DNA of 64,000 nucleotides from assembly GCA_963775345.1 (NCBI GenBank), contig CAVZIS010000006.1:344786-408785 (forward strand). The letters run 5' to 3'. Origin of the DNA: Vicinamibacterales bacterium (lineage in GTDB: Bacteria > Acidobacteriota > Vicinamibacteria > Vicinamibacterales > JAMQPK01). Below the pieces are notes generated by a model. The model made no database searches and was not told where the DNA came from. It saw only the letters and a list, made by a program, of their open reading frames with translations. The position numbers were made by a program, and so were the translations under genes. Of the stretch, positions 26,114-53,478 are shown piece after piece. Every line of letters starts with the position of its first letter. Positions within the stretch are counted from its first letter, which is position 1.

Positions 26114-29100
26114 ATGCCTCGGTACAGCAAGTTGTTCGTAACGGCGCCCGGCGTGCTTCCGATGATTCTCGTCAGATTGTCGCTAGTGTTGTTGGGCCTG
26201 CTCGCAACGGTAACCGTCGCTGAAACGGGCCAAGGAGGAGATTCGGCAGTCCGGGGACGTGTTGTGGACGATCAACAAGCCGCTGTCCCAGGTGCGGCGA
26301 TTGTCGTCACCAATCAAGAGACTGGTGCCGTCAGGGAAACCGTCTCTGGAGGGGACGGCTCATATTTCGTGACGAGCCTTCCCCCGGCCCCATACCGCAT
26401 TACGGTTGAGCTCGCAGGCTTCAGGTCACTCACGCGGGACAACGTGGTCTTGCGGCTTGGAGAAACCTCGACTGTGGATCTCCAGCTCGCATTGAGTGGA
26501 ATTGCGGAGAGCGTGACGGTGACGGGAGAGGCAGCGCAGGTCGACCTCACGTCGTCGCAAGGGGGAGGGAGCATTGCGCCGGGAGAGCTGCAGGACTTAC
26601 CGTCGGCGAATCGGGGATATGTGTCGTTGGTGGCATTGCTGCCCGGGGTCCAGTACGTTGCTGATTCGGGTGGAGACCCCTCGGTCAACATCAACGGCCA
26701 GCATGATAGCCAAGTCACCTACGTGCTCGACGGCGGCAATAACAACGATGACTCACAAGGCGGCGCCGGCGGCGCTCAGACTCGTGTCAACATTGAATCG
26801 GTTCAAGAGTTTCAAGTCATCACCAACCAGTTCGACGCTGAACATGGCCGCTCAACCGGCGGAATCGTGAACGCGATCACCAAGAGCGGCACAAACAATT
26901 TCCGTGGGAGCGGCTTCGGCTTCTTCACGGATGCGAACTATACTGCCATGGATCCCTTTGTAAAGGGGTCCGATGGCAGGATCGCAAAGCCAGATTCGCG
27001 GAAATATCAGTGGGGAGGCACCTTTGGCGGCCCGATCGTAAGGGACAAGACTCATTTCTTCTTGAGTCTCGAGCGGGTTGAGCTCGACTTCGCGAAAACG
27101 TTTGTGTATCCGACGAGGCCCGGGCTGAGTCACTCGTCGGTCGAAGATATTACTTTCACGAACCTTCTGGGGCGCGTGGACCATCAGTTGAATCCCGACA
27201 ACACACTCTCGTTTCGGTGGGTGCAGGAGCCAGCGCCGAACCGCGGTCAGATGAACGGCAGGGTGACGGAGACGGCAAAAAATCACGAGATTGACAAGGA
27301 TATTGCTGCAAATGCGTCGTACAACGTGGTCCTCAGCAACACCCGTGTGAACAGCATGCGGGCCTCGTTTACACGAGAGGATATCAAGCGGGGACCCGAG
27401 ACTGACTCGTACTGGGAGAACCAATACAGCGGTCCAAGGGATGGAACGGCCTTGCAGAGCGAGCTGCCGATGCTTCGTTTCCTCAGTTTCGACGACCAGA
27501 ATACTCAGCAAGGACAAGACAAGATCTTGGACAATTACTCCTTCGACAATACGTTCAGTTGGTTCGTGCCTGGGAAACGAGGCGACCATGATCTGAAGTT
27601 CGGTGCGCAATATGTGCTTGGAACGCACGACTACGTAGAGGCTGGCAGTTCCAACGGGATTTTTACGTTTGCTGGCGACGCAGCGTTCAGCGCTGCCAAC
27701 CCGTCAACCTATCCCGAGCGTCTGACAATTCGTGTGCCGGGGGCGCAACTTTTCATCCCGTTCTCTCATGCCCTGGGCCTCTTCGCGCAGGACAAATGGC
27801 GTCTGACCCCAAAACTCACGATGAGTCTGGGACTCCGCTGGGACATCGACGTCATCCCAATCTCATCGGGGGATTTCAATCCTCTCTTTTCTGATCGGGA
27901 CGATTATCCAGTCGATAAGAACAACTTCCAGCCGCGCGTGGGATTTGCCTACAACCTCGACGGAAAGTCGGTCCTCCGTGGCGGAGCAGGGATTTTTCAC
28001 TCGAGAATGTGGTTCAATCACTTCCAAAACGCCATGACGCAAGGGGTATACACGAGTTCCTTCATCGCCAACTTCCCGGTCAGCGGGCCAGACCCCGGAC
28101 CGAGTCGGGGACAGTTCCCGACCGACCCACTGCTCGTCAATGGGCCTTTTGTGAATCGCGATCTGCTGCAAACGCTCGTTCCTTACCCCATCCGTAACTC
28201 CGCTGCCGTGGTCCTGGACAACCCTGACCGTATCAACCCCTCGACGCGTCAGGTTTCGCTCGGGTACGAACGCCAACTGCGATCAATGTTGTCGTTCGGG
28301 GCCGACTACGTACACAATTGGGGGAAAAATGAGGGCATCCAATACGATTTGAATCCGGCTGTGCGGGCAAGCATAGCCCGGACGGCACCGATCGTTCGCA
28401 CGGATTTGCTGGGGATTGCTAATCAATTGGGAATCTCACCATTTCTCAACTCGGTCAGGGTCGGCGAGTACATTGGTGAATCCCAGTACGATGGCCTTAA
28501 CCTCCAGTTGGAAAAGCGATTTGCGAATGCGTGGCAAGGGCGCGTATCGTACACGCTGGGTTATGTCCGCGGGAACACCGGTGGTGCGCCAATTCCCGTC
28601 AATAACTTCCAGGTGCTCGGCGAGCGGAATCTTGATCTGAACTATGGCCCGAACGATGCCGACCGCCGTCACATCCTCAGCATTAGTGGCCGATTTGAGG
28701 TGCCAGGGATTCAGGGCCTGAACATCAGCGGCGTGTTCCGAGCGATGACTGGGCGGCCGTTCACCATTCACGACAGTAATTTCGATCTCGATCGAAACGG
28801 CATTCTCTTTGACCCACTTCCGGCCGGGGAATATAGCGGCACGGGAGTCAATGCTTGGACGGTCGAAAACAAGGGCGGCCGCAACGGCGCGGTTGGGCAT
28901 GGCTACGCCAATCTTGATGCGCGCATCAGTTACCGTTTTCGTGTCGCAACGGAGAGAACTCTCGATGTGTTTGGTGAGATCTTCAACGTCACGAACGAAC
29001 CGAACTACGCCAACCCCACTGGCGACCGCCGCTCGCCGGACTTCCTGGTTCCAACCGACTTCGAAGGCGGCGGAGCGGTTCCACGGCAAGGACAGATTGG

Positions 29101-29119
29101 TATTCGGCTCGGCTTCTGA
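26114..29119 (+). CDS. TonB-dependent receptor with CarboxypepD_reg N-domain (intact; cassette type I, copy 1)
   Basis: AAGGAG lies upstream of ATG 26114. Then GRVVDDQQAAVPGAAIVVTNQETGAVRETVSGGDGSYFVTSLPPAPYRITVELAGF, a plug and a barrel ending QGQIGIRLGF. Confidence 0.92.
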   Translation: MPRYSKLFVTAPGVLPMILVRLSLVLLGLLATVTVAETGQGGDSAVRGRVVDDQQAAVPGAAIVVTNQETGAVRETVSGGDGSYFVTSLPPAPYRITVELAGFRSLTRDNVVLRLGETSTVDLQLALSGIAESVTVTGEAAQVDLTSSQGGGSIAPGELQDLPSANRGYVSLVALLPGVQYVADSGGDPSVNINGQHDSQVTYVLDGGNNNDDSQGGAGGAQTRVNIESVQEFQVITNQFDAEHGRSTGGIVNAITKSGTNNFRGSGFGFFTDANYTAMDPFVKGSDGRIAKPDSRKYQWGGTFGGPIVRDKTHFFLSLERVELDFAKTFVYPTRPGLSHSSVEDITFTNLLGRVDHQLNPDNTLSFRWVQEPAPNRGQMNGRVTETAKNHEIDKDIAANASYNVVLSNTRVNSMRASFTREDIKRGPETDSYWENQYSGPRDGTALQSELPMLRFLSFDDQNTQQGQDKILDNYSFDNTFSWFVPGKRGDHDLKFGAQYVLGTHDYVEAGSSNGIFTFAGDAAFSAANPSTYPERLTIRVPGAQLFIPFSHALGLFAQDKWRLTPKLTMSLGLRWDIDVIPISSGDFNPLFSDRDDYPVDKNNFQPRVGFAYNLDGKSVLRGGAGIFHSRMWFNHFQNAMTQGVYTSSFIANFPVSGPDPGPSRGQFPTDPLLVNGPFVNRDLLQTLVPYPIRNSAAVVLDNPDRINPSTRQVSLGYERQLRSMLSFGADYVHNWGKNEGIQYDLNPAVRASIARTAPIVRTDLLGIANQLGISPFLNSVRVGEYIGESQYDGLNLQLEKRFANAWQGRVSYTLGYVRGNTGGAPIPVNNFQVLGERNLDLNYGPNDADRRHILSISGRFEVPGIQGLNISGVFRAMTGRPFTIHDSNFDLDRNGILFDPLPAGEYSGTGVNAWTVENKGGRNGAVGHGYANLDARISYRFRVATERTLDVFGEIFNVTNEPNYANPTGDRRSPDFLVPTDFEGGGAVPRQGQIGIRLGF

Positions 29120-29144
29120 CAGTCCAACTCGAGATGGAGGATTT

Positions 29145-30300
29145 ATGAGATTGCGACAGTTCACGCGTGCGCTCATGCTCGTTGCGCTGGGGACGTTCAC
29201 AGTTCTGAGCGTCCATGCCCGAGCCATCGACCCCTATCTGCTGGTGATGGGCAACAAGCTCAAGCCCAACAAGGCGACCCACCAGGAGAAGCTCTACATC
29301 TCGAACGAGCAGTCCAACACGCTGACGGTCGTGGATGTCGCGACCAACAAGGTCATCAACACGATCGTGATCGGAGAAACTCCGCACGGCCTTGCTGCCG
29401 CACCATCGGGGGAGCTTCTGTATGCCGGGAGCGAGGGAGATGGCTCGGTCAGAGTCATCGACACGATCACCGACAAGGTCGTGAAGACGTATCCTTTCTT
29501 CGGCTACGAGCCCAACGAGTTCGACATCTCGGAAGACGGACGGTATCTCGTCGTCCCCTCTGTACATGGGCTACTACCAGATATTCGACACCCAGAAGGA
29601 AGAAATCGTGGAGTACGTTCACACCAAGGGGGTGCCGCACAACACGATCGTCGCGGAGGGCAACGCGTATCTGTTTCCGACATTCACAAACGAAGGGCAT
29701 TTGAAACGGCAAGCAGGGCTGCCGACTACCCAGCCGCGTGAGATCACCATCGTGTCATTGAAAACCCTCAAAGTCGTCGGGGCCATCCCGATTCCAGCTG
29801 CGTCGCGGCCGCCCACCATCAGTCCCGACGGCAAGCGCCTCTACGTGCAAACTGGAGGTCCTACCGTTTACGGCAACCTGATGGGGTTCCTCGTCATCGA
29901 CATTCCGTCGAGGAAGGTGATCTCGCAGGCTGAGCACATGCTGACCCCCGAGGAAAAGGCGGGGCCGGGACGGTCGCACGGGATAACGGTCGCGGCTGGC
30001 GGCCGGGAAGTCTGGTCTGCGGATGTGAACCACAAGGCGACGTTCGTATTCGACGTCACCGTGCTTCCACCCAAGCAGATCGCGCGAATTCCGATGGATG
30101 GGCAACCTTACTGGGCGACATCGTCATTGGACGGCAATATCGTGTACGTCGCGGCTTCTCCGGATCACTTCGTCGTTGCGTACGATGCCGCGACGAAAAA
30201 GCAGATTGCACGGTTTGATCTTCCCAAAATGGGACCGAAGCGGATGCTTGCCGTGAACGTGCCGCGCAAAGCGTCGACGACGACCACGACGTCGCGATGA
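29145..30300 (+). pseudogene. YVTN/YncE-like 7-bladed beta-propeller, secreted (copy A; single frameshift)
   Basis: GGAGG, then ATG 29145 and a signal peptide MRLRQFTRALMLVALGTFTVLSVHA. YVTN-type repeats follow (LYISNEQSNTLTVVDVATNKVINTI..PHGLA). The frame breaks at about 29553, where one extra t is present relative to copy B (ccctcTgtacatggg); the protein continues as SYMGYYQIFDTQKEE... to 30300. Confidence 0.75.
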
Positions 30301-30348
30301 CCGATCTCGGAGTGCACTGAAGCGATCGGCCCCCTGGCAGAGTAGGGA

Positions 30349-30879
30349 ATGATTCGAAGGACGTTTCTGGGGTATGGGCTCATGCTCCTCGGTCGGAGCC
30401 GGCGGGTGTGGGCCCAGGCCGCCAGCGAGTCGGTGCGCTACAGCCCGCTGGCCTCGTCAGTCCGAATTCCACTCAGTGACTTGACTGCTCCACTGAGCCC
30501 TGTACCGTTCACGGCCGAAGCCGTTCTCCCGCCCGCGGCGTCTGTGCCCGGTCAGCGTGTGCGGTTGAGCGGGATGCTCTTCCGCAAGTCGACCGGCGAT
30601 GACACCGCGGAGCGGTTCACCGCCCTCTGCACGATCTGCCCTCATGAATCCTGCCTGGTCAAGTTCGTTGATGACCCGACAATGGCGTCTGAGCTGAGCG
30701 AGGGCGCCACCTCGAGTCCGGTCTTTTCCTGTGGGTGCCATCACAGCGCCTTCCATGGCGTGGACGGGAACAAGATCAACGGTCCGACGCACCGCGGCTT
30801 GTACCGCTTTCGAGTGACCGATGTCAGTGAAGGAGCCGTCGTGATCGGCGAAGTGGAAGAGGCTTTGCTCCTCGCATGA
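30349..30879 (+). CDS. Tat-exported Rieske [2Fe-2S]-type protein (copy A, intact)
   Basis: Twin-arginine leader MIRRTFLGYGLMLLG...VWAQA. Rieske box I C97-P-H-E-S-C102 and box II C128-G-C-H-H-S-A-F. 176 aa. Confidence 0.8.
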   Translation: MIRRTFLGYGLMLLGRSRRVWAQAASESVRYSPLASSVRIPLSDLTAPLSPVPFTAEAVLPPAASVPGQRVRLSGMLFRKSTGDDTAERFTALCTICPHESCLVKFVDDPTMASELSEGATSSPVFSCGCHHSAFHGVDGNKINGPTHRGLYRFRVTDVSEGAVVIGEVEEALLLA

Positions 30880-31990
30880 TAGTCAGGATAGCGGTACTCG
30901 TTCTCTCCACGCTGATCATTCCGGCTTCTGTCTCGCACTCGGTCTTCGATTGGCCGGGGCGGGGCGTGCTGCCCAGCAGCGAGCGAACGCACCCGCACAC
31001 GTTTCAAATCAATCGCGCCTGGCTGAAATTACCTGGGAAATGGAAGCTGGGAGACGCCTCCAGCGTCGCAGTCGATGCACGGGATCATGTCTGGGTGCTT
31101 CATCGCCCGCGAACCCTTCCCACCGACCAGATCGCGAGCACCGCGCCGCCCGTGCTGGAGTTCGATGCGGCCGATAACTTCATTCAAGGCTGGGGCGGAC
31201 CGGGGAATGGATACCAGTGGCCGGAGAGGGAGCACGGCCTCTATGTGGACTACAGGAACCACGGGCTGGTGGATCGGAGCCAACTAATTGCCCGCGACAG
31301 CAAGCTTCCTGGACTCAAGCCCGTCGCAGATGACCAGCTCGTCAAGTTCACCACAACTGGCAAATTTGTGATGCAGGTCGGCCGGAGTAATGCGAGCGGT
31401 GGTAACAGCGATACACGCAATCTACACAGGACCCGCAGACGTATCTGTGTATCGGAAGACGAACGAGGTGTTCGTGGCAGATGGGTACGGCAACCACCGC
31501 GTGATTGTTTTCGATGCAGAGACCGGCGTATTCAAACGGGCATGGGGCGCCTTTGGCAACAAACCGATAGATGACGACCACTGTCCTGCGTAAATCGCTC
31601 CTCCAACCACAAAAGATGGGAGCTCTGGTCCTCAACAGTTCGCCATTGTCCACGCGGTTCGCGTGTCGAATGATGGGTTGGTCTACGTCGCCGATCGAGA
31701 AGAGAACAGACGGGTCCAAGTGTTCAGCATCGAGTGGTAAGTTCATCGATCAGGTCTTTGTGGGCCGCCAGCCAGAGACCGGAGGGGCGTCCGTCGTCGC
31801 CTTCTCGTCGGCCCCGCAGCAGCAGTTTCTCTACGTCGGAGGTGGTTCGCTTAGATAACAGTTCTCGATCACAAGACACTCGCGCCCAGAAGCGTCCTTT
31901 GGCGGCAAAGGAGTCTTGTGTGGATCCACCACATGGCGGTCGACACGAAAGGTAACGTTTACGTAGCAGCGCTTAGTCAAGGCATCAAAG
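30876..31990 (+). pseudogene. PAL-like NHL-repeat propeller (copy A; frameshifts plus in-frame stop)
   Basis: Homologous to the intact copy at 46015, and its start overlaps the Rieske stop (ATGA). There is a scrambling +6 nt indel cluster near 31255-31300, an extra g near 31428 and a nonsense codon (cac tgt cct gcg TAA, about 31590) where copy B reads HCPAAPAPP. Confidence 0.8.
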
Positions 31991-32096: not shown

Positions 32097-32144
32097 CGGG
32101 TTCAATCCCAGGACGAATTCAAGAATTGAAGGAAGGAGTGGCCA

Positions 32145-35071
32145 ATGAGTCTCGTCAGGTTTTCAGGTACGGCGGTCGGTCTGCTGATGGCCGCAACGCT
32201 AGCGGAAGCGCAGCAAGGCGGGGGCTCCGCCATTCAGGGTCGGGCGGTAGACCAGCAACAGGCTGTTCTTCCCGGAGTGACGATCGTGATCACACACCAA
32301 GAAACTGGGACATTTCGTGAAACGGCCACTGGGCCCGAAGGCACGTACTTCATTACCGGCCTTCCTCCTGGCCCTTACCGTGTCACGGCCGATCTTGCAG
32401 GGTTTCAAGAGACTTACCCGTGAGAACGTTCGCCTCCAGCTGGGAGCCACGCAGACGCTTGAGCTGACGCTCGAAGTCGGGGCAGTAGCGGAGACTGTGA
32501 CAGTCTCAGGTCAGGCGGCTCTGGTCGACCTCACTTCCGCCCAGGTCGGAGGGACCTTGGAACCGCTGAGTTAACGGAACTACCTACGCCCTCCCGCAAC
32601 ATCGTCGGCTTCGTCGCGATGTTACCTGGAGTTCAGCTCAACCCCGATCCAGGGTCCGATCGGTTAACGTCAACGGACAACGCGATAGCAAGTCAATTTT
32701 GTGCTCGACGGTGGGAACAACACTGACGACGTCGCAGGATCCCCTGGAGGCTCGCAGGCACGGGCGCCATTGGAGGCAATTCAAGAAATGCAAGTGGTGA
32801 CCAACCAGTTCGACGTGGAATTCGGCCGAACGACCGGCGGCATCGTGAACGCAATCACAAAGGCTGGGACCAACGTCGTGCGCGGGTCCGCGTTCGGCCA
32901 CTTCACCAACTCAGGCATGACGGTGCCAACGATCTTCGTTGAGCAATCGGGAGGGCGTCTCGAGGAGGCGGATACGGCCAAGCGCCAATGGGGGGGCACG
33001 GTCGGCGGGCCAATTGTGCGTGACAAACTTCACTTCTTCTCAAGTTTCGAGCGGTAGTCCTGGGCACTGGTATATCGAATGTGTTCCCGACGAGACCGGA
33101 GTTGAGCTTCTCCGAGACACAGGGCAACAATGCGTACAACGTCCTAGTTCGCGTGGATCACCAGATAAACGCGAATAACACCTATAGTGTCCGGTACCTA
33201 ACCGAACGTCAGCCGAATCGCAACCTGATACCGGCTCCCGCGCCACGCTCACCACCTCGATTACGAGCTGGACTACGACACGACTGCCGTTGTCGCCCAT
33301 AACTGGGTCCTTGGCAACACGCAGTTAAATACGTTCCGGGTTTCGTTCGTGCAGGAAGACATCGAGCGCGGAGCCGAACCTGGGACCTTTCTGGAAACCC
33401 GTCGAAAGGATCTCGAGCCTCCCGTGCTCCGGTTCCTCAGCTTTGACGAGCAAGGGCATGTCAACGGCCAGCCGCAAAGCAAAGGCCCAGGGATTGATGA
33501 CTCGTTCAGCTGTTCGTGCCAGGGAAGCCGGCGACCACGATCTGAAGTTCGGATTTCAGTACTCGTATGCCAAGAACGACCTGTCCGAACAGGGCAGCAT
33601 GAACGGTGTCTTCACGTTCCCCGGCGATCGCCCCTTCAATGCCGCTGATCCTTCGACCTACCCGGAACGACTGTCGATTCGCGTACTGGATACCGCCGTA
33701 GCCGTCCATACAAATTCGTTGGGTACTTCGGTCAGGACAAATGGCGATCGACGAGTAAACTGACGCTGAGCCTTGGCTTGCGCTACGACGTCGACATCGT
33801 TCCGTTCCTTCAACCTGAATCCTCTTCTCGGATCCGAGCGAATATCCGGTCGACAAGAACAATTTCCAACCGCGCGCCGGCTTTGCCTACAACATGGATG
33901 GAAGATCGGTCATTCGCGGCGGCGCCGGCCGCTATTATGAAAAACTCATGATTGGTCTTTACCAGCCCCTTGCCCTGAACGGCGTATTCGGCGATTCGTT
34001 CATCGTGAACTTCCCGGTCAGGTACGCCAGACCCAGGACCGAGTCAGGGGCGCGTAGTTCATACCGATCCGATGCTTGTAAACGGCCCCGTCGTGAACCG
34101 GGAGCTGCTTAGTCAGCTTTACCCTTCGGGCACAGTAGTCCGCAACACGAGCACTGTTCAGATGGATTCCCCTGATCGCCAGCTTTCGAGATTGACTCAG
34201 GTGTCATTTGGCTATGAGCGCCAGCTTGGGCAAACATTGTCTCTTGGGCTGGATTACGTCCAGAACCGGGCCGCGGTTGGCTTGCCTACAACCTGAATCC
34301 CGGTCTCCGCGTTGACACCAGCCGAACGGGGCCGATAGTTCGCACGGATTTGTTGGGGCTAGCTCAGCAATTAGGGATTCCGCCATTTGCAAACAACGTG
34401 TATTTGAGAGCGGACTATACCGGCGGAACGCAGGGACGACGGACTCAATCTCCAATTCGAGCGGCGCTTTGCCGGATTCTGGGGGAGCCCGCGTCAGCTA
34501 CACGTTGGGCAATGCCCAGGGCAACAACGATGGAAACCCTGCGCCAGTTAACAATCTCCAGGTTTTGGAGGAGCGCAATCTCGATCTGAACTGGGGTCCG
34601 TTAGATACACTCAACAGGCGGCACAATTTGGTGCTGAGCGGTCGCCTGGAAGTGCCACAACTTAAAGGGGTGACTGTCAGCAGCGTATTCCGAATTATGA
34701 GTGGCAGGCCACTCAGTATCACGAACTCTAATGTGGATGCGGATCGGAACGGCATTCTTTTCGACCCGTTACCAGCCGGTACCTACACTGGCGTGGGCAA
34801 CAACGCGATTACGGTGAAGAACAAGGGCGGGCGCAACGGCGCTTACGGCCCGAACTATGCTCAACTTGATCTCCGGATTGGCTACCGTTTGAGGGCGGGT
34901 GGAAGCAGAACGCTCGACGCGTTCGGCGAGGTCTATAACCTTACCAACGAAACAAACTTTTTAAACCCATCTGGCGATCAAAGATTGCCGGAATTCCTGG
35001 TGCCGACTGCTCTCTTCGCCGGTGGGTTTCCCAGGCAACTGCAACTCGGCCTCCGGTTTCTGGGATTTTGA
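32145..35071 (+). pseudogene. TonB-dependent receptor (cassette type II, copy 2), heavily frameshifted
   Basis: Fragments in all three frames align in order with the TBDR at 47298: QGRAVDQQQAVLPGVTIVITHQETGTFRET..., VTNQFDVEFGRTTGGIVNAITKAGTN, RYLTERQPNR, DHDLKFGFQYSYAKNDLSEQGSMNGVFTFPGDRPFNAADPSTYPERLSIRV, and the end ...FPRQLQLGLRFLGF*. There are at least 8 frame changes. Confidence 0.85.
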
Positions 35072-35109
35072 TTGAAGGAGCATACTGAGGACGAATCATT
35101 TCGTTGAGA

Positions 35110-38797: not shown

Positions 38798-38800
38798 CGA

Positions 38801-44234: not shown

Positions 44235-44280
44235 TGCGGTGAGTAGAATAGAGCATGGGACTTTAAAGGATGGAGGACGT

Positions 44281-45438
44281 ATGAGACTGAGACAGTTCAC
44301 GATTGTGCTCATGCTCGTTGTGCTGGCGACGTTCACGTTCTGACGGTCCGTGCCCGAGCCATCGACCCCTATCTGCTGGTGATGGGCAACAAACTAGCCC
44401 CGAACAAGGCGACCCACCAGGAGAAGCTCTACATCTCGAACGAGCGGTCCAACACGTTGACGGTCGTGGATGTCGCGACCAACAAAGTCATCAACACGAT
44501 TGATAGGTGCGAGGGAAGCACTCCGCATGGCCTTGCTGCCCCACCATCAGGAGAGCTTCTGTACGCTGGGAGCGAGGGAGATGGCTCGGTGAGGGTCATC
44601 GACACCATCACCGACAAGGTCATCAAGACGTATCCTTTCTTCGGCTATGAGCCCAACGAGTTCGACATCTCGGAAGACGGCGGTATCTCGTCGTCCCCTC
44701 GTACATGGGCTACTACCAGATATTCGATACCCAGAAGGAAGAGATCGTTGAATACGTTCACACCAAGGGGGTGCCGCACAACACGATCGTCGCAGAGGGC
44801 AACGCGTATCTGTTTCCGACATTCACAAACGAAGGGCATTTGAAGCGGCAAGCAGGGTTGCCGACCACGCAGCCGCGTGAGATCACCATCGTGTCATTGA
44901 AAACCCTCAAAGTCGTCGGGGCCATTCCGATTCCAGCTGCGTCGCGGCCGCCCACCATCAGTCCCGACGGCAAGCGGCTCTACGTGCAAACGGGAGGTCC
45001 GACCGTGTACGGGAACCTGATGGGGTTCCTCGTCATCGACATTCCGTCGAGGAAGGTGATCTCGCAGGCCGAGCACATGCTGACCCCCGAGGAAAAAGCA
45101 GGGCCAGGACGGTCGCACGGGATAACGGTCGCGGCTGGCGGCCGAGAAGTCTGGTCGGCGGATGTGAACCACAAGGCGACGTTCGTGTTCGACGTCACCG
45201 TGCTTCCACCCAAGCAAATCGCGAGAATTCCGATGGATGGGCAGCCTTACTGGGCCACCATCTCACTGGACGGCAATACCGTGTACGTCGCGGCTTCTCC
45301 GGATCATTCGTCATCGCGTACGATGCCGCGACGAAAAAGCAGAATGCACGGTTTGATCTTCCCAAAATGGGACCGAAGCGGATGCTTGCCGTGAACGTGC
45401 CGCGCAAAGCGTCGACGACGACCACGACGTCGCGATGA
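44281..45438 (+). pseudogene. YVTN/YncE-like beta-propeller (copy B, type I), at least 3 frameshifts
   Basis: Near-identical to copy A, with 2 aa differences over the roughly 200 residues I compared by eye. There is a 1-nt deletion in the signal peptide (about 44335, giving a premature TGA), a 1-nt deletion at about 44684 (gacggCggtat versus gacggAcggtat in A) and a frameshift at about 45305. Confidence 0.85.
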
Positions 45439-45485
45439 CCGATCTCGGAGTGCACTGAAGCGATCGGCCCCTGGCAGAGTAGGGA

Positions 45486-46018
45486 ATGATTCGAAGGACG
45501 TTTCTGGGGTATGGGCTCATGCTCCTCGGTCGGAGCCGGCGGGTGTGGGCCCAGGCTCGCCAGCGAGTCGGTGCGCTACAGCCCGCTGGCCTCGTCGGTC
45601 CGGATTCCACTCAGTGACTTGACTGCTCCACTGGAGCCCTGTACCGTTCACGGCCGAAGCCGTCTTGCCGCCCGCGGCGCTGTGCCCGGTCAGCGTGTGC
45701 GGTTGAGCGGGATGCTCTTCCGCAAGTCGACCGGCGATGACAGCCGCGGAGCGGTTCAGCGCCCTCTGCACGATCTGCCCTCATGAATCCTGCCTGGTCA
45801 AGTTCGTTGATGACCCGACAACGGCGTCTGAGCTGAGCGAGGGCGCCACCTCGGGTCCGGTCTTTTCCTGTGGGTGCCATCGCAGCGCCTTCCATGGCGT
45901 GGACGGGACCAAGATCAACGGTCCGACGCACCGCGGCTTGTACCGCTTTCGAGTGACCGATGTCAGTGAAGGAGCCGTCGTGATCGGCGAAGTGGAAGAG
46001 GCTTTGCTCCTCGCATGA
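45486..46018 (+). pseudogene. Tat-Rieske protein (copy B), frameshifted
   Basis: It starts identically to copy A (MIRRTFLGYGLMLLGRSRRVWAQ) and retains CPHESC...CGCHRSAF, but is read in at least 3 frames (breaks at about 45555, about 45640 and about 45740). Confidence 0.8.
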
Positions 46019-47139
46019 TAGTCAGGATAGCGGTACTCGTTCTCTCCACGCTAATCATTCCGGCGTCTGTCTCGCACCCGGTCTTCGAGTTGGCCGGGGC
46101 GTGGCGTGCTGCCCAGCAGCGAGCGGACGCACCGCCAACGTTTCAAGTCGATCGCGCCTGGCTGAAATTACCCGGGAAATGGAAGCTGGGAGACGCCTCC
46201 AGCGTCGCAGTCGATGCACGGGATCATGTCTGGGTGCTTCACCGCCCACGAACCCTTCCCCCCGACCAGATCGCGAGCGCCGCGCCGCCCGTGCTGGAGT
46301 TCGATGCGGCCGGTAACTTCATTCAAGGCTGGGGTGGACCGGGGAATGGATACCAGTGGCCGGAGAGGGAGCACGGCCTCTATGTGGACTACAGGGACCA
46401 CGTGTGGATCGGAGGCAACAATTGCCCCGGCAGCAAGCTTCCTGGACTCAAGCCCGTCGCAGATGACCAGCTCGTCAAGTTCACCACAACTGGCAAATTT
46501 GTGATGCAGGTCGGCCGGAGTAATGCGAGCGGTGGTAACAGCGATACACGCAATCTACACAGACCCGCGGACGTATCTGTGTATCGGAAGACGAACGAGG
46601 TGTTCGTGGCAGATGGGTACGGCAACCACCGCGTGATTGTTTTCGATGCAGAGACCGGCGTATTCAAACGGGCCTGGGGCGCGTTTGGCAACAAACCGAT
46701 AGATGACGACCACTGTCCCGCGGCCCCCGCTCCTCCAATCACCAAAGATGGGAGCCCTGGTCCTCAACAGTTCGCTATTGTCCACGCGGTTCGCGTGTCG
46801 AATGATGGGCTGGTCTACGTCGCCGATCGAGAGAACAGACGGGTCCAGGTGTTCAGCATCGAGGGCAAGTTCATCGATCAGGTCTTCGTGGGCCGCCAGC
46901 CAGAGACCGGAGGGGCGTCCGTCGTCGCCTTCTCGTCGGACCCGCAGCAGCAGTTTCTCTACGTCGGAGGCGGTTCGCTGATAACAGTTCTCGATCGCAA
47001 GACACTCGCGCCCAGAAGCGCCTTTGGCGGCAAAGGAGTCTTGGTTGGAATCCACCACATGGCGGTCGACACCAAAGGCAACGTTTTCGTTGCGGCGCTC
47101 GGCCAAGGCATCCAAAAACTTGTTCCTGACGGCCGTTGA
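46015..47139 (+). CDS. PAL-like (peptidyl-alpha-hydroxyglycine lyase-like) NHL-repeat beta-propeller, secreted (copy B, intact)
   Basis: 374 aa with an N-terminal hydrophobic anchor/signal. NHL-type blades: SSVAVDARDHVWVLHR, HGLYVDYRDHVWIGG, PADVSVYRKTNEVFVADGYGNHRVIVFDAETG, HAVRVSNDGLVYVADRENRRVQVFS, HHMAVDTKGNVFVAA. The start overlaps the Rieske-B stop. Confidence 0.75.
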   Translation: MIVRIAVLVLSTLIIPASVSHPVFELAGAWRAAQQRADAPPTFQVDRAWLKLPGKWKLGDASSVAVDARDHVWVLHRPRTLPPDQIASAAPPVLEFDAAGNFIQGWGGPGNGYQWPEREHGLYVDYRDHVWIGGNNCPGSKLPGLKPVADDQLVKFTTTGKFVMQVGRSNASGGNSDTRNLHRPADVSVYRKTNEVFVADGYGNHRVIVFDAETGVFKRAWGAFGNKPIDDDHCPAAPAPPITKDGSPGPQQFAIVHAVRVSNDGLVYVADRENRRVQVFSIEGKFIDQVFVGRQPETGGASVVAFSSDPQQQFLYVGGGSLITVLDRKTLAPRSAFGGKGVLVGIHHMAVDTKGNVFVAALGQGIQKLVPDGR

Positions 47140-47297: not shown

Positions 47298-50226
47298 ATG
47301 TCCCGATCCGCATGGTTACCGGCGGCGCTCGGCGTGGTCCTGGCAACGGCGATTGTGGGCGCGCAAGGTGGCGGATCCGCCCTTCAAGGCCGCGTGACCG
47401 ACGAGCAGCAGGCCGTCCTTCCCGGTGTCACCATCACCGTCACCCATCAGGAGAGCGGAACGTTTCGCGAAACGGTCTCGGGTCAGGACGGTGCGTACTT
47501 CGTGCCGGGCCTTGTTCCCGGGCGCTATCGTGTCGCGGCCGATCTCGCGGGATTCAAGAAATTCCTGCGCGAAGACGTGAATCTGCTTCTGGGAAACACG
47601 CAGACGCTCGATCTTCGGCTCGAGGTCGGCGGCGTGACCGAGACGGTCACGGTGACCGAGGAGGCGCCGGCCGTCGACCTGACCTCGGCGCGCGTCGGCG
47701 GAAACGTGGCATCGCGTGAGCTGCTCGATCTGCCATCTCCCACCCGCAACTTCATTTCGTTCGTGGCCATGGTGCCGGGCGTGCAGCTGAATCCGAGCGC
47801 TGAAGGATCCGATTCGATCAGCGTCAACGGTCAGAGCAGCAATCAGGTCACCTTCGTGCTGGACGGCGGCAACAACACCGACGACAACTCTGCCTCGCCA
47901 TCGGGTGCGCAGGCGCGAACGCCGCTCGAGACAGTCGAAGAATTCCAGGTCCAGACCAATCAGTTCGACGTCGAGTTCGGGCGAACGACCGGCGGCGTCG
48001 TCAATGCCATCACCAAGCGGGGGACCAACGCGTTCAGAGGCTCGGCCTTCGGGTACCTGACGAACTCGGCGATGACAGCGCCGACAATCCTGGCCGAGCT
48101 GGCGGGCGAAGGCGAATCGGATACCGACAAGCATCAGTATGGCGTCACCTTTGGCGGTCCCATCATCCGCGACAAGCTGCATTTCTTCGGGAGCTTCGAG
48201 CGGTATGTCGTCGGCACGGGTCTCACCAATGTGTTTCCGACCAGACCGGAGCTCAACTGGAGCGCGAAGGAGGGGTTGAACGGCAGAAATTATATGGTTC
48301 GCGTCGACCATCAGATCAACGCGAACAACACATATACGGCGCGATATCTGACCGAACGCCAGCCCAATCGCGACCTGTTGACCGGCGAGCGCGCGACGCT
48401 CAGCACTGGGAACTACGAGCTGGACACCGACCAGACTGCAAGCGTGGCATATAACCGCGTGATCGGCACGAGGGCGCTGAATACGGTCCGGGCGTCAATC
48501 GAGACCGAAGACATCCAGCGCGGGGCCGAGCCAGGCACTTTTCTTGAAACGAACCGGAAAGATCTGGAGGCTCCCGTCCTCCGGTTCCTGAGCTTTGACG
48601 AGCAGGGGCACACCAACGGCCAGCATCGCAACGCCCAGGCGCCAGGCATTGATGACACGTTCAGTTTGTTCGTGCCGGGCAAAGCGGGCGATCACGATCT
48701 GAAATTCGGATTCCAGTATTTGTACGCCAAGAACGAGCTGTCCGAGCAAGGCAGCATGAACGGCGTGTTCTCGTTCCCCGGCGATCGCCCGTTCAATGCC
48801 GCTGATCCTTCGACCTACCCCGAACGTCTGTCGATTCGCGTGCCGGTTCCCGCCGGCGTGACGTCGTTCACCCATTCGTTCGGGTATTACGCTCAGGACA
48901 AGTGGCGGATCACACCGAAGCTGACGCTGAACTTTGGACTGCGCTACGACGTCGACATCTTTCCGTTCCTTCAGCCGCTGAATCCTCTTCTCGAATCCGG
49001 CGAATATCCGGTAGACATGAACAATTTCCAGCCGCGCGCCGGCTTTGCCTACAACATCGATGGACGATCGGTGATTCGCGGCGGCGTCGGCCGCTATTAC
49101 GAGAAATTCTTCATCGGTCAGGGCTCGCCGCTTCAGGAAACGGGCGTGTTATGGCAGATCCCTGATCGTCAACTTCCCCGTGAGTCAGCCCGACCCCGGT
49201 CCGAGCAACGGACGGCTTCCGACCGATCCGATGCTCGTGAATGGCCCCGTCGTGAATCGCGCACTGCTCAATCAGCTCTATCCCGCGGACGTTCTGACGC
49301 GGAACACGGGGACCGTGCAGATGGATTCGCCCGATCGGCAGATGCCGAGCTCGACGCAGTTCTCGACCGGCTACGAGCGCCAGCTCGGAGCGACGATGTC
49401 CTTCGGGCGTCGACTACATCCACAACGAAGGCCGTAACTGGATCGGTTACGACTTGAATCCCGCTCTGCGGGTCAATACCACCCGAACGGGAGCGGTGAA
49501 CCGCACCGATCTGTTGGGGCTTGCAAACACGCTCGGGATTTCTCCTTTCGCGAACTCGGTCAATCTTCGGTTCGACTACACTGGCAAAACCAGGTACGAT
49601 GGCCTCAACCTTCAGTTGGAGCGGCGGTTCGCGGGGTTCTGGAGCGCCCGGGCCGGTTACACGCTCGGCTACGCCCGCGGCAACAACAGCGGCGCCGCAT
49701 TGGCCAATAACAATTTTCAGCTGCTGGCCGAGAAGAATCTCGACCTGAATGAAGGGCCGCTGGATACCGATCGGCGCCACAATCTTATTCTGAACACCCG
49801 CGTGGAAGTGCCGCAGCTGCAAGGGCTTGACCGTCAGCGCGCTGTTCAGGTACATGAGCGGCAGACCGTTCAGCATCATCGACACGAACGTCGACCCGGA
49901 CAGGAACGGAATCCTGTTCGATCCGCTGCCGGCCGGCGAATACAGCGGCGTCGGTGAGACAGCGATCACGGTGAACAACAAGGGAGGTCGTAACGGCGCC
50001 TATGGACCCGATTACGCGCAACTGGATGCCCGGGTGGGGTATCGTCTTCGCATGCCCGGCTCGCGAACGCTCGACGTGTTCCTCGAGTGCTTCAATGTGA
50101 CCAACAGATCGAATTTCACGAATCCGTCGGGAGACAGAAGGCTGCCGAACCTTCCTCGTCAACAACGGGTTGGTCGCGGGCGGGTTCCCGCGACAACTGC
50201 AGGTCGGGACCCGGCTCGGCTTTTAG
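47298..50226 (+). pseudogene. TonB-dependent receptor (cassette type II, copy 5), 3' third frameshifted
   Basis: AGGAGG lies upstream of ATG 47298. The gene is intact for about 615 codons (QGRVTDEQQAVLPGVTITVTHQESGTFRETV...). Frame changes then occur at about 49150, about 49410, about 49830 and about 50150. The true end FPRQLQVGTRLGF* is at 50226. Confidence 0.85.
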
Positions 50227-50235
50227 GAGGAATCT

Positions 50236-51346
50236 ATGAGATTGCGATATGTCGATGCTTGTGCTCGGGCTAGTAGTGACTCGCGACCTTCGCGTCGACC
50301 GCCCAGAATGCCGCGGTTCACGAGAAGCTCTATGTCTCGCTCCAAGGCTTCGAGAAGGAGAGCCTGGCGGTCGTCGACACGGCGACCAACAAGGTCATCA
50401 AGACCCTGTCGGCCGGGGCGCACCCGCACGGCATGGCCTCGCCCCAGTCCCAGTCAATCCTCTATGTCGCAAGTGAGACCGAAGGCACCATAACGACGGT
50501 CGACACCACCCGGGACCAGGTCATCAAGACGCTGGATGTCGGCTTTGGCGTGGAACCTCAGGAGGGCGATATCACCCCGGATGGCCGCTTCCTGTATTGG
50601 CCCTCGTACGCCGGCTACTACCAGGTCTTCGATACCCAGAAGGAAGAGATCATCGAATACATCCACACCCTGGGCATCGGGCATAACACCGTGATGTCGC
50701 CCGATGGGCGATTTGTCTATCTGCTTCCCATCGCCGGCGGCGCCGGGTCACTGGCGGCGGCCTTCGCTGGGTCTGCCGCGGACGCAGCCGAAGGAAGTGA
50801 CCGTCGTCGATGCGAAAACCCATAAGGCCGTGGGGACGATTCCTCTCGGCTCGGGACCAAGGCCCGGGACCATCAGCCCCGACGGCAAGCGGATCTACAT
50901 GAACGTGGACAACCTGCTGGGATTCCTCGTCATCGATACCGCCGCGCGAAAGGTGATCTCGAAGGCGACCTACACGCTGACGCCGGATGAACAGGCCGTG
51001 CAGAGCCGGTCCCACGGGATCGCGGTTGCGAATGATGGCAAGGAAGTGTGGTCGACTGACGTCGTCCACAGCCTGGTCTTCGCATTTGACGTCACGGTGA
51101 CTCCGCCGAAGCAGATCGCACGGTTCCCGGTGGGGCGGCAGCCGTATTGGATTGTCACCATCGAAGGACACCAAGACCGTTTACGTGGCCAATCCGAGCA
51201 GTGACGAGGTGATCATCTTTGATGTGGCCACCAAGAAGGAAAAGGCGCGCATCCAATTTCCACCGAAGTCGCATCCCACGCGCATGCTGATGGTGGCCGC
51301 TCCGCGCACAGCGCGACCACAACTCTCGATGACGACAGTACACTGA
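50236..51346 (+). pseudogene. YVTN/YncE-like beta-propeller (copy C, type II), multiple frameshifts
   Basis: RBS taGGAGG, then ATG 50236. Ordered fragments: HEKLYVS..ESLAVVDTATNKVIKTL; ILYVASETEGTITTVDTTRDQVIKTL...YAGYYQVFDTQKEEIIEYIH; GHWRRPSLGLPRTQPKEVTVVDAKTHKAVGTIP...; TVYVANPSSDEVIIFDVATKKEKARI. Confidence 0.8.
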
Positions 51347-51372: not shown

Positions 51373-51914
51373 ATGCTTCGGCGGGTGTTCGTTCGTCTAC
51401 GGGCTCATGCTCGTCGGCTTTGGCCGACGGGTATGGGCCCAGTTAGTCGAACCGGTCAGTCAAATACTTTCCGCTGACACATCCGATTCGCATCCCGCTC
51501 GCCGAGGTGAAGACGCCGTGGCAACCCGTGCCGTTTACTGCCGAAGCGATGGCGCCTGCCACCTCGACCACTGCAAGACGGCGAGTGCTCATCAGCGGGG
51601 TGTTGTTTCGACGATCAGAGTCGGACGACAACGCAACAAAAAACCTGAGCGCGCTTTGCCTCACCTGTCCGCATGAGCAATGTAAGGTCGATCTCGTCAC
51701 CGATCCCGCCCAACTGGCTCAGATGATCGGCCGGCCGGCGACGCATCCGCTCTTCGAATGCGCCTGTCATCAGAGCGTCTTCGATGCGTTGCAGGATGGT
51801 GAGCGGATATCGGGCGAAACGCCGCGCGGCTTGTACCGCTTTCGAATCACCAATGTCAGCGACAGTGCGGTCGAGATCGGTGAAATCGAAGAAATAGCGC
51901 TATTTGAGGTGTGA
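51373..51914 (+). pseudogene. Tat-Rieske protein (copy C); the Rieske domain is intact but the leader is separated by two frameshifts
   Basis: The 135-aa ORF 51507-51914 keeps CPHEQC...CACHQSVF. The twin-arginine start MLRRVF (ATG 51373) and the h-region YGLMLVGFGRRVWAQ lie in two other frames. Confidence 0.65.
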
Positions 51915-51930
51915 CCGTATACTGATGACA

Positions 51931-52085
51931 GTAGCGGACTTGGGCAGGCCTGAAAGGCCTGCGCTACCGATGTCGGCTTCTAATCGGGCAGGCCTAAAAG
52001 GCCTGCGCTACCGAGGTCCTTCACCGGTAGCGCAGGGCTTCAGCCCTGCCGCCGATCTGCGGTAGCGCGGGGCTTCAGCCCTGCC
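51931..52085. repeat. Cluster of four REP-like palindromic units (two forward, two inverted)
   Basis: GGGCAGGCCTGAAAGGCCTGCGCTACC (51942-51968), GGGCAGGCCTAAAAGGCCTGCGCTACC (51986-52012), GGTAGCGCAGGGCTTCAGCCCTGCC (52026-52050) and GGTAGCGCGGGGCTTCAGCCCTGCC (52061-52085). Confidence 0.85.
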
Positions 52086-52128
52086 ATCAGGCCGAACGCG
52101 ATAAGGAGCAATCCGATGCGGCGAGTAC

Positions 52129-53478
52129 TTGTTCCCGGCGGTGTTCTTGTTCATCATCGCTCTCGCGATAACCCTGCCTTCCGGTGTTGCCGTATCCGCC
52201 GCAGTGCCCGAGACGCCCACTTTCAACAAGGACGTTCTGTCGATTCTTCAAAAGAACTGTCAGGAGTGTCATCGGCCCGGCGCGATTGCCCCGATGTCCT
52301 TCATGACCTACCAGGAGACCCGCCCATACGCCCGGGCGATCTCCAAGGCGGTCGTCAGCAGGACGATGCCGCCGTGGTTTGCAGATCCGACGGTTGGTCA
52401 TTTTGAGAACACCAAGCTGCTGAGCGATGAACAGATCGCTACGTTGGTCGCGTGGGCCGACAAGGGCGCGGTTGAGGGCGATGCGAAGGACAAGCCTGCG
52501 CCTGTCGATTTTGCCGACGGATGGACGATTGGCAAGCCCGACATCATCGTGCAGATGCCGAAGACCATCGAGCTTCCGGCGACCGGCATCATCGATCAGT
52601 CAAATGTGCTCGTCTACGCGCATTTCGAAAAGGACATGTGGGTGAAAGCCGCCCAGGTGCTGCCCGGCAACGCGAAGGTCGTGCATCACATGAAGGCGTG
52701 GATCCGTCCGCCCGGTTCCGCGTGGATGGCGGATGCTCCCGAAGGGGTTCTCTACAATCCACCGCGTGGCGCGGGAGGACCGGCGCCGCAACCGGTCGCA
52801 CTGTCGGCGACGGGATATAAACCCGCTCAGGACATTCTTGCGAAGTACAACCCCGGTGTTGCGGGCCAGGAGTTCACAACGGGAAACGCCGCCAAATTCA
52901 TCGCCGCCGGCTCCGACATCGTCTTCGAGGCGCACTATACGACGACGGGGAAACCCGAAACAGATAGATCGTCGGTCGGCATCGTGCTGGCCGATGGACC
53001 ACCGACGCAACGGCATCTCACGACGACGGCGATCAGCGAGAGGAATTTCGAGATTCCGGCGGGCGATCCGCACTATGAAATCAGAGGCGAAGTCACCGTC
53101 GAGGAGCCCGCGAAGCTCGTCTGGATCCAGCCGCACATGCACTATCGCGGCACGTACTACGAGTTGAAGGTCGTGTACCCGGATGGTAAGGAAACGATGA
53201 TCGTGCGCGTTCCGAACTACCGGTTCGATTGGCAATTGGGTTACGAGCTGGCCGAGCCGGTGGATTTGCCGAAGGGCTCGAAGCTGATGACCGTTTCGTA
53301 CTACGACAATTCATCAGCCAACAGATTCAATCCCGATCCCGCCAGGAACGTGCGGTACGGTGCCCAGAGCTGGGATGAGATGAATGTCAGCTTCATCGGT
53401 ATTTTGATCGACGCGAAAGGAGACCCCGGGAGAGCGTTCCGCCGACGAGGGGCGCCGGTTCGCCAGGAGGTGGAGTAG
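52129..53478 (+). CDS. Cytochrome-c-domain / PHM-like (copper type II ascorbate-dependent monooxygenase-like) fusion protein, secreted
   Basis: Heme-c motif C44-Q-E-C-H48 in an N-domain (ILQKNCQECHRPG..MPPWFADP). PHM-type ligand pattern H186-H187, H269, H336-x-H338, M418. The ORF opens with TTG 52129. A better-placed ATG 52116 (AAGGAG at 52103-52108) is in another frame, which implies either a 1-nt indel at 52119-52129 or the TTG start. Confidence 0.75.
   Translation: MFPAVFLFIIALAITLPSGVAVSAAVPETPTFNKDVLSILQKNCQECHRPGAIAPMSFMTYQETRPYARAISKAVVSRTMPPWFADPTVGHFENTKLLSDEQIATLVAWADKGAVEGDAKDKPAPVDFADGWTIGKPDIIVQMPKTIELPATGIIDQSNVLVYAHFEKDMWVKAAQVLPGNAKVVHHMKAWIRPPGSAWMADAPEGVLYNPPRGAGGPAPQPVALSATGYKPAQDILAKYNPGVAGQEFTTGNAAKFIAAGSDIVFEAHYTTTGKPETDRSSVGIVLADGPPTQRHLTTTAISERNFEIPAGDPHYEIRGEVTVEEPAKLVWIQPHMHYRGTYYELKVVYPDGKETMIVRVPNYRFDWQLGYELAEPVDLPKGSKLMTVSYYDNSSANRFNPDPARNVRYGAQSWDEMNVSFIGILIDAKGDPGRAFRRRGAPVRQEVE

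Follow-up and report, generated by a model that had tools for sequence, protein, structure and literature searches.

A duplicated array of TonB-dependent receptor, YVTN propeller and Rieske protein genes in a Vicinamibacterales bacterium, and the periplasmic oxidoreductase that it may encode

Several described periplasmic systems share parts with the gene array studied here, a tandem series of genes for TonB-dependent receptors (TBDRs), seven-bladed YVTN beta-propellers and small Rieske [2Fe-2S] proteins that lies at 26-53 kb of a 64,000-nt stretch of DNA (hereafter the window; contig CAVZIS010000006.1, positions 344,786 to 408,785 of the forward strand) from a Vicinamibacterales bacterium. 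In arsenite oxidase AioAB, a soluble periplasmic Rieske protein passes electrons from its catalytic partner to c-type cytochromes. The Rieske protein of the array is likewise small (about 175 aa), Tat-exported and equipped with disulfide-type CxH..C / CxCH boxes, and AioB is among its nearest solved relatives; however, its partner here is a seven-bladed YVTN propeller with a signal peptide of its own and not a molybdopterin/[3Fe-4S] subunit. Another likeness is to quinohaemoprotein amine dehydrogenase (QHNDH), methylamine dehydrogenase (MADH) and hydrazine synthase (HZS) beta/gamma. In these periplasmic enzymes the gene of a seven-bladed propeller of about 350 aa lies beside genes for a dihaem cytochrome c and for a small redox subunit, and both HZS-beta and QHNDH-beta are fold and NCBIfam neighbours of our propeller. 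They differ from the present system in that the small subunit here is a Rieske [2Fe-2S] protein rather than a quinone-cofactor peptide, the dihaem cytochrome matches no Pfam family above threshold and none in NCBIfam, and the equivalog scores fall far below their cut-offs.

Two further systems pair a TBDR with a propeller. The Escherichia coli TBDR gene yncD, whose product is now known as PqqU, an importer of pyrroloquinoline quinone (PQQ), stands beside yncE, which encodes a periplasmic seven-bladed YVTN-type propeller and whose deletion gave no PQQ phenotype. This parallel was drawn in a preliminary description of the window and holds for the TBDR-propeller neighbour pair, although by score the window genes are not those equivalogs: the window TBDR is of the CarboxypepD_reg type and not PqqU, and the propeller is not the YncE equivalog. 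Moreover, the two genes are divergent in E. coli but co-directional here, and E. coli has no Rieske partner. The BtuB-BtuG pair of Bacteroides B12 uptake also joins a TBDR to a cargo-binding seven-bladed propeller that is a fold neighbour of ours, but BtuG is a surface lipoprotein lid, whereas the propeller here has no lipobox and pairs with a redox protein. Two other proteins of the array recall PHM and PAL, the two halves of animal peptidylglycine alpha-amidating monooxygenase, and dopamine beta-hydroxylase (DBH): one shares the PHM/DBH fold of two domains and retains the HH..H and HxH..M positions, and the other, an NHL protein, is collinear with PAL and keeps its Tyr/His/Arg motifs. Unlike in animals, they are encoded by separate genes in different cassettes, PHM-PAL pairing is not conserved across genomes, and the PHM-like domain, which scores below the Pfam gathering threshold, shares its chain with a c-type haem domain and, in many relatives, with AhpC/TSA. 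The literature searched (bacterial PHM-like enzymes; Rieske/YVTN/YncE/TonB combinations) contained no description of the propeller-Rieske module or of the haem-c/PHM-like family, in keeping with the earlier statement that no described bacterial system of such composition was known. In kind, the array would be a periplasmic multi-subunit oxidoreductase coupled to TonB-dependent uptake, the mechanism of which we infer below.

The conserved functional unit is the YVTN propeller together with the small Tat-exported Rieske protein. Neighbours were counted in 75 GTDB species-level loci after the open reading frames (ORFs) of all loci had been clustered; the ad hoc gene calls still lose some genes, so that adjacency counts, such as the 35 given here for the dihaem cytochrome, are lower bounds. 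The propeller adjoins the Rieske gene in 64 of the 75 loci and a dihaem cytochrome c does so in at least 35; some further loci have a different c-type cytochrome. The most frequent arrangement combines propeller, dihaem cytochrome c and Rieske genes, in this order or permuted (e.g., L082 and L083), and its flanks vary from locus to locus (Band 7, histidine kinase, SSF transporter, GH88, peptidase S9), which suggests that the three-gene unit behaves as a self-contained module. The dihaem cytochrome is 270-290 aa long and consists of two tandem units, RCxxCHSRGGGN ... LVVPG ... HWHxGGKHW (L082:9119-9931; L083:9114-9992); no Pfam family was found for it above threshold and NCBIfam gave no match. 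Its gene is placed between those of the propeller and the Rieske protein in about half of all loci, and the HWHxGGKHW motif that it carries is rich in histidine. A TBDR gene adjoins the Rieske gene in 16 loci and lies within 10 kb of it in 28; it is also directly beside the module in L001-L003, L085 and L088, and the order of the window, TBDR-propeller-Rieske, recurs in L005, L007, L017, L037 and L049 as well as in the close relatives. Within 10 kb of the Rieske gene there is a PQQ-type dehydrogenase gene in 25 loci, a PHM-like gene in 20 and a PAL-like NHL gene in six, the last being adjacent in none. The synteny that the preliminary description proposed to look for in other genomes is thus present for the propeller and Rieske genes and, in a minority of loci, for the TBDR gene, but in none of the 75 loci for an adjacent NHL gene; none of the outcomes that the preliminary description named as refuting its case was encountered.

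The array was mapped by placing intact orthologues from relatives on the window by tblastn. Between 26 and 53 kb, coding sequence is almost entirely on the + strand, and the genes form a tandem same-strand array, [TBDR-propeller-Rieske-NHL] [TBDR-propeller] [TBDR-propeller-Rieske], followed by the PHM-like gene. The first cassette (type I) comprises TBDR-A (26114-29119), a CarboxypepD_reg-type receptor of 1001 aa without interruption; Propeller-A (29145-30300), a seven-bladed YVTN propeller of 384 aa in orthologues with one +1 frameshift near 29561; Rieske-A (30349-30879), an uninterrupted 176-aa Rieske [2Fe-2S] protein with a Tat leader; and NHL-A (30876 to about 32020), a PAL-like NHL propeller gene with at least four frameshifts. 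The second cassette consists of TBDR-mid (32138-35071), which carries many frameshifts and was recovered by tblastn of L002:5960-8896 in several frames, and its partner Propeller-mid (40338-41475; two frameshifts; Pfam YNCE and Cytochrom_D1), with no Rieske gene. A duplicate of type I (copy B) opens with a TBDR 3' remnant of about 570 bp (43662-44231) and continues with Propeller-B (44281-45435; three frameshifts), Rieske-B (45486-46018; at least two frameshifts) and NHL-B (46015-47139), an uninterrupted PAL-like six-bladed NHL propeller of 374 aa with a signal peptide and a Pfam NHL match. Type II is made up of TBDR-C (47298-50226; four frameshifts; 88% aa identity to L002:10515-13448 over five frame segments), Propeller-C (50280-51346; two frameshifts; 89-98% aa identity to L002:13458-14552) and Rieske-C (51374-51914; one frameshift near the leader; 83% aa identity to L085:5180-5719; Pfam Rieske 22.9 bits for the ORF at 51447-51914). 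The gene for the haem-c/PHM-like putative dicopper monooxygenase (52111-53478), also on the + strand, is the next one after the type II Rieske gene, across a gap of about 200 bp, and in both type I copies the start of the NHL gene overlaps the Rieske stop as ATGA; both arrangements are as reported in the preliminary description.

Comparison of the window with itself by BLAST revealed two layers of repetition. Segments 28541-31989 and 43662-47115 are a recent duplicate of 3.45 kb (90% identity, 297 mismatches and 25 indels), and an older paralogy of 64-72% identity links the three TBDR and four propeller genes. The repeat structure is the product of duplication and not of chance, and the array has been disturbed by a 5-kb insertion and by a recent partial re-duplication. 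The recurring TBDR-propeller-Rieske order claimed earlier is borne out as three old paralogous + strand cassettes, with the correction that the copy at 43640-46018 retains only the 3' part (about 570 bp, 43662-44231) of its TBDR gene. Likewise, the two "partial copies" recognized at 32145-35350 and 40338-41475 do have TBDR and propeller content but are one TBDR-propeller cassette parted by the 5-kb PSCyt/PSD and DUF1501 insertion, and the cassette is contiguous in L002. The inserted genes, one of PSCyt1/PSCyt2/PSD1 (DUF1549/DUF1553) type and one of DUF1501 type (35106-40283), lie between a propeller 5' fragment of about 270 bp and the complete propeller gene; the fragment (35106-35378, + strand) is 75% identical in nucleotide sequence to 40422-40662 and matches the middle propeller of L002 at 61% by tblastn. 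L001 has the insertion too (9944-14818); L002 does not.

Rieske-A matched Pfam PF00355 with 25.9 bits against a cut-off of 20.3, and across 21 sequences both boxes, CxHExC ... CxCHxS, were invariant (C97, H99, C102, C128, C130, H131 and S133), including the disulfide cysteines C102 and C130 and the serine after CxCH (S133). The leader, MIRRTFLG...WAQ, contains the twin-arginine motif RRTFL, with R3 and R4 nearly invariant; leader and boxes had both been recognized in the preliminary description. The nearest solved relatives are of the bc1/b6f type and arsenite oxidase AioB. Taken together, these sequence features point to an electron-transfer subunit of the high-potential class. The family is small (50 protein clusters) and almost confined to Acidobacteriota: 77 loci were found in 185,579 species genomes, mostly of Vicinamibacterales, the remainder being a few Bryobacterales, one Terriglobia, one Gemmatimonadota and a few other or misassigned bins.

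Propeller-A matches its orthologue in L001 (L001:5039-6193) in two frames with 98.6% and 99.2% identity by tblastn, and Propeller-mid matches L002:8952-10031 in three frames with 84-88% aa identity. Propeller fragments hit the Pfam families YNCE, Lactonase and Cytochrom_D1, and in NCBIfam the propeller exceeded the cut-off for the YVTN repeat TIGR02276 (77 bits against 27.85), all other NCBIfam matches (TIGR03866, hydrazine synthase beta, L-NosZ, YncE and AztD) being sub-threshold. Membership was accordingly rejected for the YncE equivalog (NF052280, 41.5 bits against 400) and for TIGR03866 (82.1 bits against 287.3), and an L-NosZ (N2O-reductase-like) propeller was rejected on its score (46-51 bits against 700) and on the conservation of only three or four histidines; the CuZ site of N2O reductase requires seven. 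An AlphaFold2 (AF2) model has seven blades (pLDDT 87), with the archaeal YVTN S-layer propeller 1l0q as its top Foldseek match (E 9e-24) and hydrazine synthase beta, 6-phosphogluconolactonase, the BtuG B12-binding propellers, NirF/NirN/cd1, NosZ, QHNDH beta and AztD as other fold neighbours. Six residues, H81, H165, H278, R221, W323 and R366, are invariant or nearly so in 40-66 propeller homologues of both architecture types, and each is the first residue of a blade's inner strand, a pattern that suggests an axial pocket binding a metal or cofactor. No lipobox is present. The leaders vary with context: propellers beside the dihaem cytochrome (L008, L011, L045, L050, L051 and others) often have twin-arginine-like leaders, for example SRRGVAMLTIGL and RRFGLLVAP, and in TBDR-linked propellers of the window type the leader is Sec-like (MRLRQFTRALMLVAL) and has no RR.

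TBDR-A has the Plug and 22-strand barrel of its class together with an N-terminal CarboxypepD_reg domain (Pfam OMP_b-brl_4 318 bits, CarboxypepD_reg 72 bits, and Plug) and is 90.5% identical in amino acid sequence to its orthologue in L003. It was rejected as a PqqU (YncD) equivalog (NF041535, 19 bits against a cut-off of 1200). The Pfam searches agreed with the component identities first proposed for the TBDR, YVTN propeller, Rieske and NHL proteins, and for the 449-aa product of the PHM-like gene they gave weak Cu2_monoox_C and cytochrome c matches.

The NHL protein resembles PAL over a considerable length. A profile of the family matched PAL (3fvz) in a single stretch (profile 66-303 against chain 23-233, E 2.9e-19), and this was the only match collinear over four blades. 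FVADGYGNHR of NHL-B aligns with FVSDGYCNSR of PAL, and VADRENRRVQ with VADRENGRIQ. The motifs of PAL Tyr654, His690 and Arg706 are matched, in agreement with the PAL-like assignment of the preliminary description. Arg272 is invariant, Tyr is present in six of seven family members, and H257 aligns with the histidine of PAL "PHSL". Among the zinc histidines of PAL (His585, His690 and His786), candidates for the remaining two (H76 or H120; H347) were picked by motif resemblance, the PAL alignment being partial. The NHL gene adjoins the Rieske gene only in the close relatives of the window and in L081, and among 44 NHL-centred metagenome loci of at least 6 kb none had a Rieske or propeller gene. 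In two of the 44 (L153 and L119) it is directly followed by a PHM-like gene, and within 8 kb such a gene is found in three. These two pairs, L153 7986-10552 (overlapping ORFs) and L119 7983-9765, are on unrelated metagenome contigs and offer a weak, independent hint of a PHM-PAL link. L153 also has a further NHL gene near the pair, along with genes for HupE/UreJ and a cytochrome P460.

The 449-aa protein was recognized by its fold. PF03712 (Cu2_monoox_C) reached 21.0 bits against a cut-off of 23, a weak cytochrome c match covered a domain with CxxCH, the Pfam search gave no match to PF01082 (Cu2_monooxygen) and no curated Pfam model was passed, NCBIfam gave no match, and neither sequence nor profile searches found a PDB match. 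Foldseek comparison of the predicted model (mean pLDDT 74, core 80-92) with the PDB returned rat PHM 1phm as the best match (E 2e-12, probability 1.00, target-normalised TM-score 0.63, about 303 columns), with human DBH 4zel at E 2e-10. Throughout 27 close and five distant homologues (28-41% identity), C44xxC47H48, H186H187M188, H269, H336xH338 and M418 are invariant; H186, H187 and H269 (CuH) and H336, H338 and M418 (CuM) would be the six copper-ligand positions, assigned by pattern and spacing rather than by residue-level superposition. According to this model, the protein is a haem-c domain fused to a PHM/DBH fold, in line with the preliminary description's suggestion of a PHM-like enzyme, and the haem-c domain could replace ascorbate as electron donor. 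The ORF starts at TTG 52129, and the ATG at 52111, which corresponds to the start of the orthologues (MRRVLVPAV), is out of frame with it. Homologues are very numerous: a word-index search gave 4448 clusters, and an exhaustive HMMER search gave 16,289 50%-identity representatives at E <= 1e-3 and 2,541 at E <= 1e-30. They occur without Rieske or propeller genes, in TBDR-IclR-PHM-like-MFS and PQQ-dehydrogenase contexts, and no characterised member of the superfamily was found in the literature searched. In these relatives, an AhpC/TSA (peroxiredoxin-like) domain very often precedes the haem-c/PHM-like module on the same chain, and sometimes the fusion partner is an esterase, GDSL lipase, MBOAT or M56 domain (P0291, P0310, P0320, P0342, P0347, P0353 and P0400). 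A recurrent block of TBDR, IclR regulator, haem-c/PHM-like and MFS transporter genes was seen in L055 (132-13938) and L086 (3798-10735).

Our preferred reading, held tentatively and at a likelihood somewhat short of even, is that the propeller-Rieske pair is a periplasmic oxidoreductase with a cytochrome c link, coupled in this lineage to dedicated importers. Propeller and Rieske protein would form a soluble periplasmic enzyme whose axial pocket (His81, His165, His278, Arg221, Trp323 and Arg366) would accommodate both the substrate and a metal or cofactor. The bc1/AioB-type Rieske protein would carry electrons one at a time between this site and c-type cytochromes, through which the enzyme would be connected with the respiratory chain. 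The module would stand behind dedicated TBDRs and would have been duplicated with them, a pattern suggestive of paralogues that differ in specificity, their imported compounds being scarce or bulky. Translation of the PAL-like NHL protein would be coupled to that of the type I Rieske protein; this protein and the haem-c/PHM-like enzyme probably act in the same periplasmic oxidative metabolism, along with PQQ-type dehydrogenases and cytochromes c. Judged by their motifs, both are probably genuine periplasmic enzymes with catalytic residues, and their genes appear to be lineage-specific accessories, recurrent but facultative, rather than part of the core. Several observations weigh against this reading. 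The physical association of propeller and Rieske protein is deduced from gene adjacency alone, and the pocket from repeat register and conservation rather than from coordinates or a model of the complex. Import coupling is not general, since 59 of the 75 loci have no adjacent TBDR gene. Some close propeller homologues have no Rieske partner (L089; the middle cassette of the window), the window cassettes lack the dihaem cytochrome c seen in other genomes, and the heterogeneous flanks of the three-gene unit give no clue to a substrate. Finally, frameshifts are about 15 times denser at 29-52 kb than elsewhere, which uniform sequencing error alone does not explain.

Other functions can be envisaged for the same genes. 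The preliminary description favoured an analogue of animal peptide amidation, in which the TBDR imports a substrate, the PHM-like protein hydroxylates it and the PAL-like NHL protein dealkylates it, with haem c and the Rieske protein in place of ascorbate. The PHM/DBH fold with its six copper-ligand positions and fused haem-c domain, the collinearity of the NHL protein with PAL and its retained Tyr/His/Arg motifs, the presence of both genes in one array here and in L002/L085, and the direct succession of NHL and PHM-like genes in L153 and L119 (two of 44 NHL-centred loci) would all suit such a pathway. However, the four genes do not behave as one conserved import-hydroxylate-cleave module: the NHL gene adjoins the module in none of the 75 loci, only 20 of them have a PHM-like gene within 10 kb, Rieske and propeller genes are absent from all 44 NHL-centred loci, and PHM-like homologues, which mostly occur without Rieske or propeller, are found without NHL as well. 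In the window itself, the NHL and PHM-like genes belong to different cassettes and a cluster of REP-like hairpins intervenes between Rieske-C and the PHM-like gene; moreover, PHM-like proteins make up a superfamily with over 16,000 representatives, and their frequent fusion to AhpC/TSA points to other chemistry. No observation connects the Rieske protein with the PHM-like protein as the electron donor once proposed, its constant partner being the propeller, and we consider an amidation pathway improbable.

A non-catalytic role for the propeller is also unlikely in our estimate. It would then be a periplasmic cargo binder for the TBDR, like BtuG or AztD, and the Rieske protein would shift that cargo (a metal chelate, a corrinoid or the like) to another redox state so as to release or trap it. 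That each TBDR paralogue has a propeller paralogue of its own recalls the co-duplication of receptors and binding proteins, BtuG-type B12-binding propellers and AztD are among the top fold neighbours, and the pocket residues (three His, two Arg and one Trp) would be suited to binding a metal or else an aromatic ligand of negative charge. Nevertheless, most propeller-Rieske loci have no TBDR gene, pocket residues that are invariant across paralogues fit poorly with differing cargo specificities, and a propeller without a lipobox is not a surface lid like BtuG; in addition, bc1/AioB-type Rieske centres are expected to be too oxidising to reduce typical ferric siderophores. We regard as very improbable a role in PQQ supply, in which the propeller-Rieske pair would bind imported PQQ or keep it oxidised for the "empty" quinoprotein dehydrogenases of bacteria that do not make PQQ. 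It is suggested by the PQQ-type dehydrogenase genes within 10 kb in 25 of the 75 loci, one of them, TIGR04528-like, directly upstream of the propeller in L055, and by the echo of the E. coli pqqU(yncD)-yncE neighbourhood, YncD being PqqU. Yet two thirds of the loci have no PQQ-type dehydrogenase gene nearby, the equivalog scores are far under their cut-offs (82/287 for TIGR03866, 41/400 for YncE and 19/1200 for PqqU), and E. coli lacking yncE shows no PQQ phenotype.

The preferred reading of the pair as an oxidoreductase could be part of a wider scheme, which we put forward as speculation of low likelihood. Soil Acidobacteriota might possess a periplasmic oxygenase/oxidoreductase toolkit that works without ascorbate or NAD(P)H: electrons from PQQ dehydrogenases would enter a c-type cytochrome pool and from there serve a haem-c-fused PHM/DBH-like dicopper monooxygenase, sometimes accompanied by a PAL-like lyase, and a new metallo-propeller/Rieske enzyme, the substrates being imported by dedicated TBDRs. 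The run TBDR-IclR-PHM-like-MFS-PQQ-DH-propeller-Rieske-TBDR was found in L055, where the PQQ-type dehydrogenase (PQQ-DH) resembles TIGR04528, the "acido-empty-quinoprotein" family. If true, the toolkit would be a bacterial counterpart, driven by the respiratory chain, of the animal amidating and hydroxylating enzymes, and would include a new class of Rieske-dependent propeller enzyme. Vicinamibacterales are among the most abundant soil bacteria and almost uncultured. The propeller-Rieske(-dihaem cytochrome c) unit would add a class of periplasmic redox enzyme to their metabolism and would offer a first testable function for many propellers annotated as "YncE-like", and the haem-c-fused PHM/DBH-like family could show how copper chemistry runs without ascorbate.

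The reading frames of the array are heavily interrupted. At least 40 single-base indels fall within 23 kb (29100-52200), about one per 0.6 kb against about one per 8-10 kb in the flanks, and their density at 29-52 kb is about 15 times that of the rest of the window. TBDR-A, Rieske-A and NHL-B are the only uninterrupted cassette genes; all propeller copies, NHL-A, Rieske-B and -C, TBDR-mid and TBDR-C carry from one to eight or more frameshifts each, and the single-copy, unrelated PSCyt/PSD, DUF1501 and LysR genes in the same stretch are equally interrupted. Homopolymer-type sequencing error was rejected as the cause, the indels lying outside homopolymers, and their positions differ between the window and L001. 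The ratio of nonsynonymous to synonymous substitution (dN/dS) against orthologues is 0.04-0.14 for interrupted genes and 0.08-0.12 for intact ones (TBDR-A 0.12, TBDR-C 0.05-0.10, Propeller-C 0.04), and between Propeller-B and Propeller-A it is 0.05 at a dS of 0.24; ancient pseudogenisation was rejected on these values. Intact orthologues were found in L001, L002, L003 and P0171. Because dN/dS is equal in interrupted and intact genes and intact orthologues exist, the interruptions probably arose as consensus errors when long metagenomic reads were assembled over a strain-variable locus, rather than by ancient pseudogenisation, and automated annotation will miss or truncate most cassette genes here.

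It is also conceivable, though rather unlikely, that the frameshifts are real and the array is a non-functional locus in very recent decay in this genome, which would concern its integrity only and would be compatible with any of the functional models above. The local concentration of indels, their position outside homopolymers and the structural instability between strains (insertions, tandem duplications and loss of the NHL gene in L001) would fit such decay. Against it, constraint in interrupted genes is the same as in intact ones, even between two recent copies; the single-copy genes are affected as much as the duplicated ones; and the propeller is intact in L001, a relative contig from another sample that is 98.5% identical to the window, and in P0171, a JGI protein of 98% identity, while L001 has different frameshifts of its own. 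The contig names of the relatives (contig_N) also suggest Flye long-read metagenome assemblies; the window itself is part of a contig of 764 kb.

The locus varies between strains. L001 lacks the NHL gene after the Rieske gene, L002 has three cassettes that are contiguous and intact, and L003 has the type I cassette duplicated in tandem; the TBDR-mid region is 93% identical in nucleotide sequence to L001, where it is fragmented too. Positions 1-547 of L001 are an NHL-B-like sequence (99% identity, window 46447-46993) that runs straight into the upstream region of the gene for ornithine cyclodeaminase (window 24646), and in L003 a cyclodeaminase 3' fragment lies between the two type I cassettes. 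From these junctions, the duplication unit seems to run from the 3' end of the cyclodeaminase gene to the NHL gene, with a copy number that varies among strains.

Four REP-like hairpin elements (two forward and two reverse) lie between Rieske-C and the PHM-like gene at 51942-52085, and two more are at 19750-19791; these palindromes are about 26-33 nt long with the core AAGSCCTGCGCTACCG, which has six matches in the window where chance would give 0.8. Scans for promoters and terminators in the two halves of the array gave counts not above those of shuffles and are thus uninformative on transcription units. The G+C content is about 60% across the window, and the wider context is catabolic, with amidases, an esterase, a DHDPS-family gene, ornithine cyclodeaminase, an RraA-like aldolase, lactonases and a PQQ-type dehydrogenase (57534-59529, + strand; one frameshift; Pfam PQQ, NCBIfam TIGR03074/04528/03075). 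Near the opposite end, at 1499-4177, an ordinary-looking gene unrelated to the array encodes an 892-aa Ser/Thr protein kinase fused to PD40 (WD40-like) propeller repeats.

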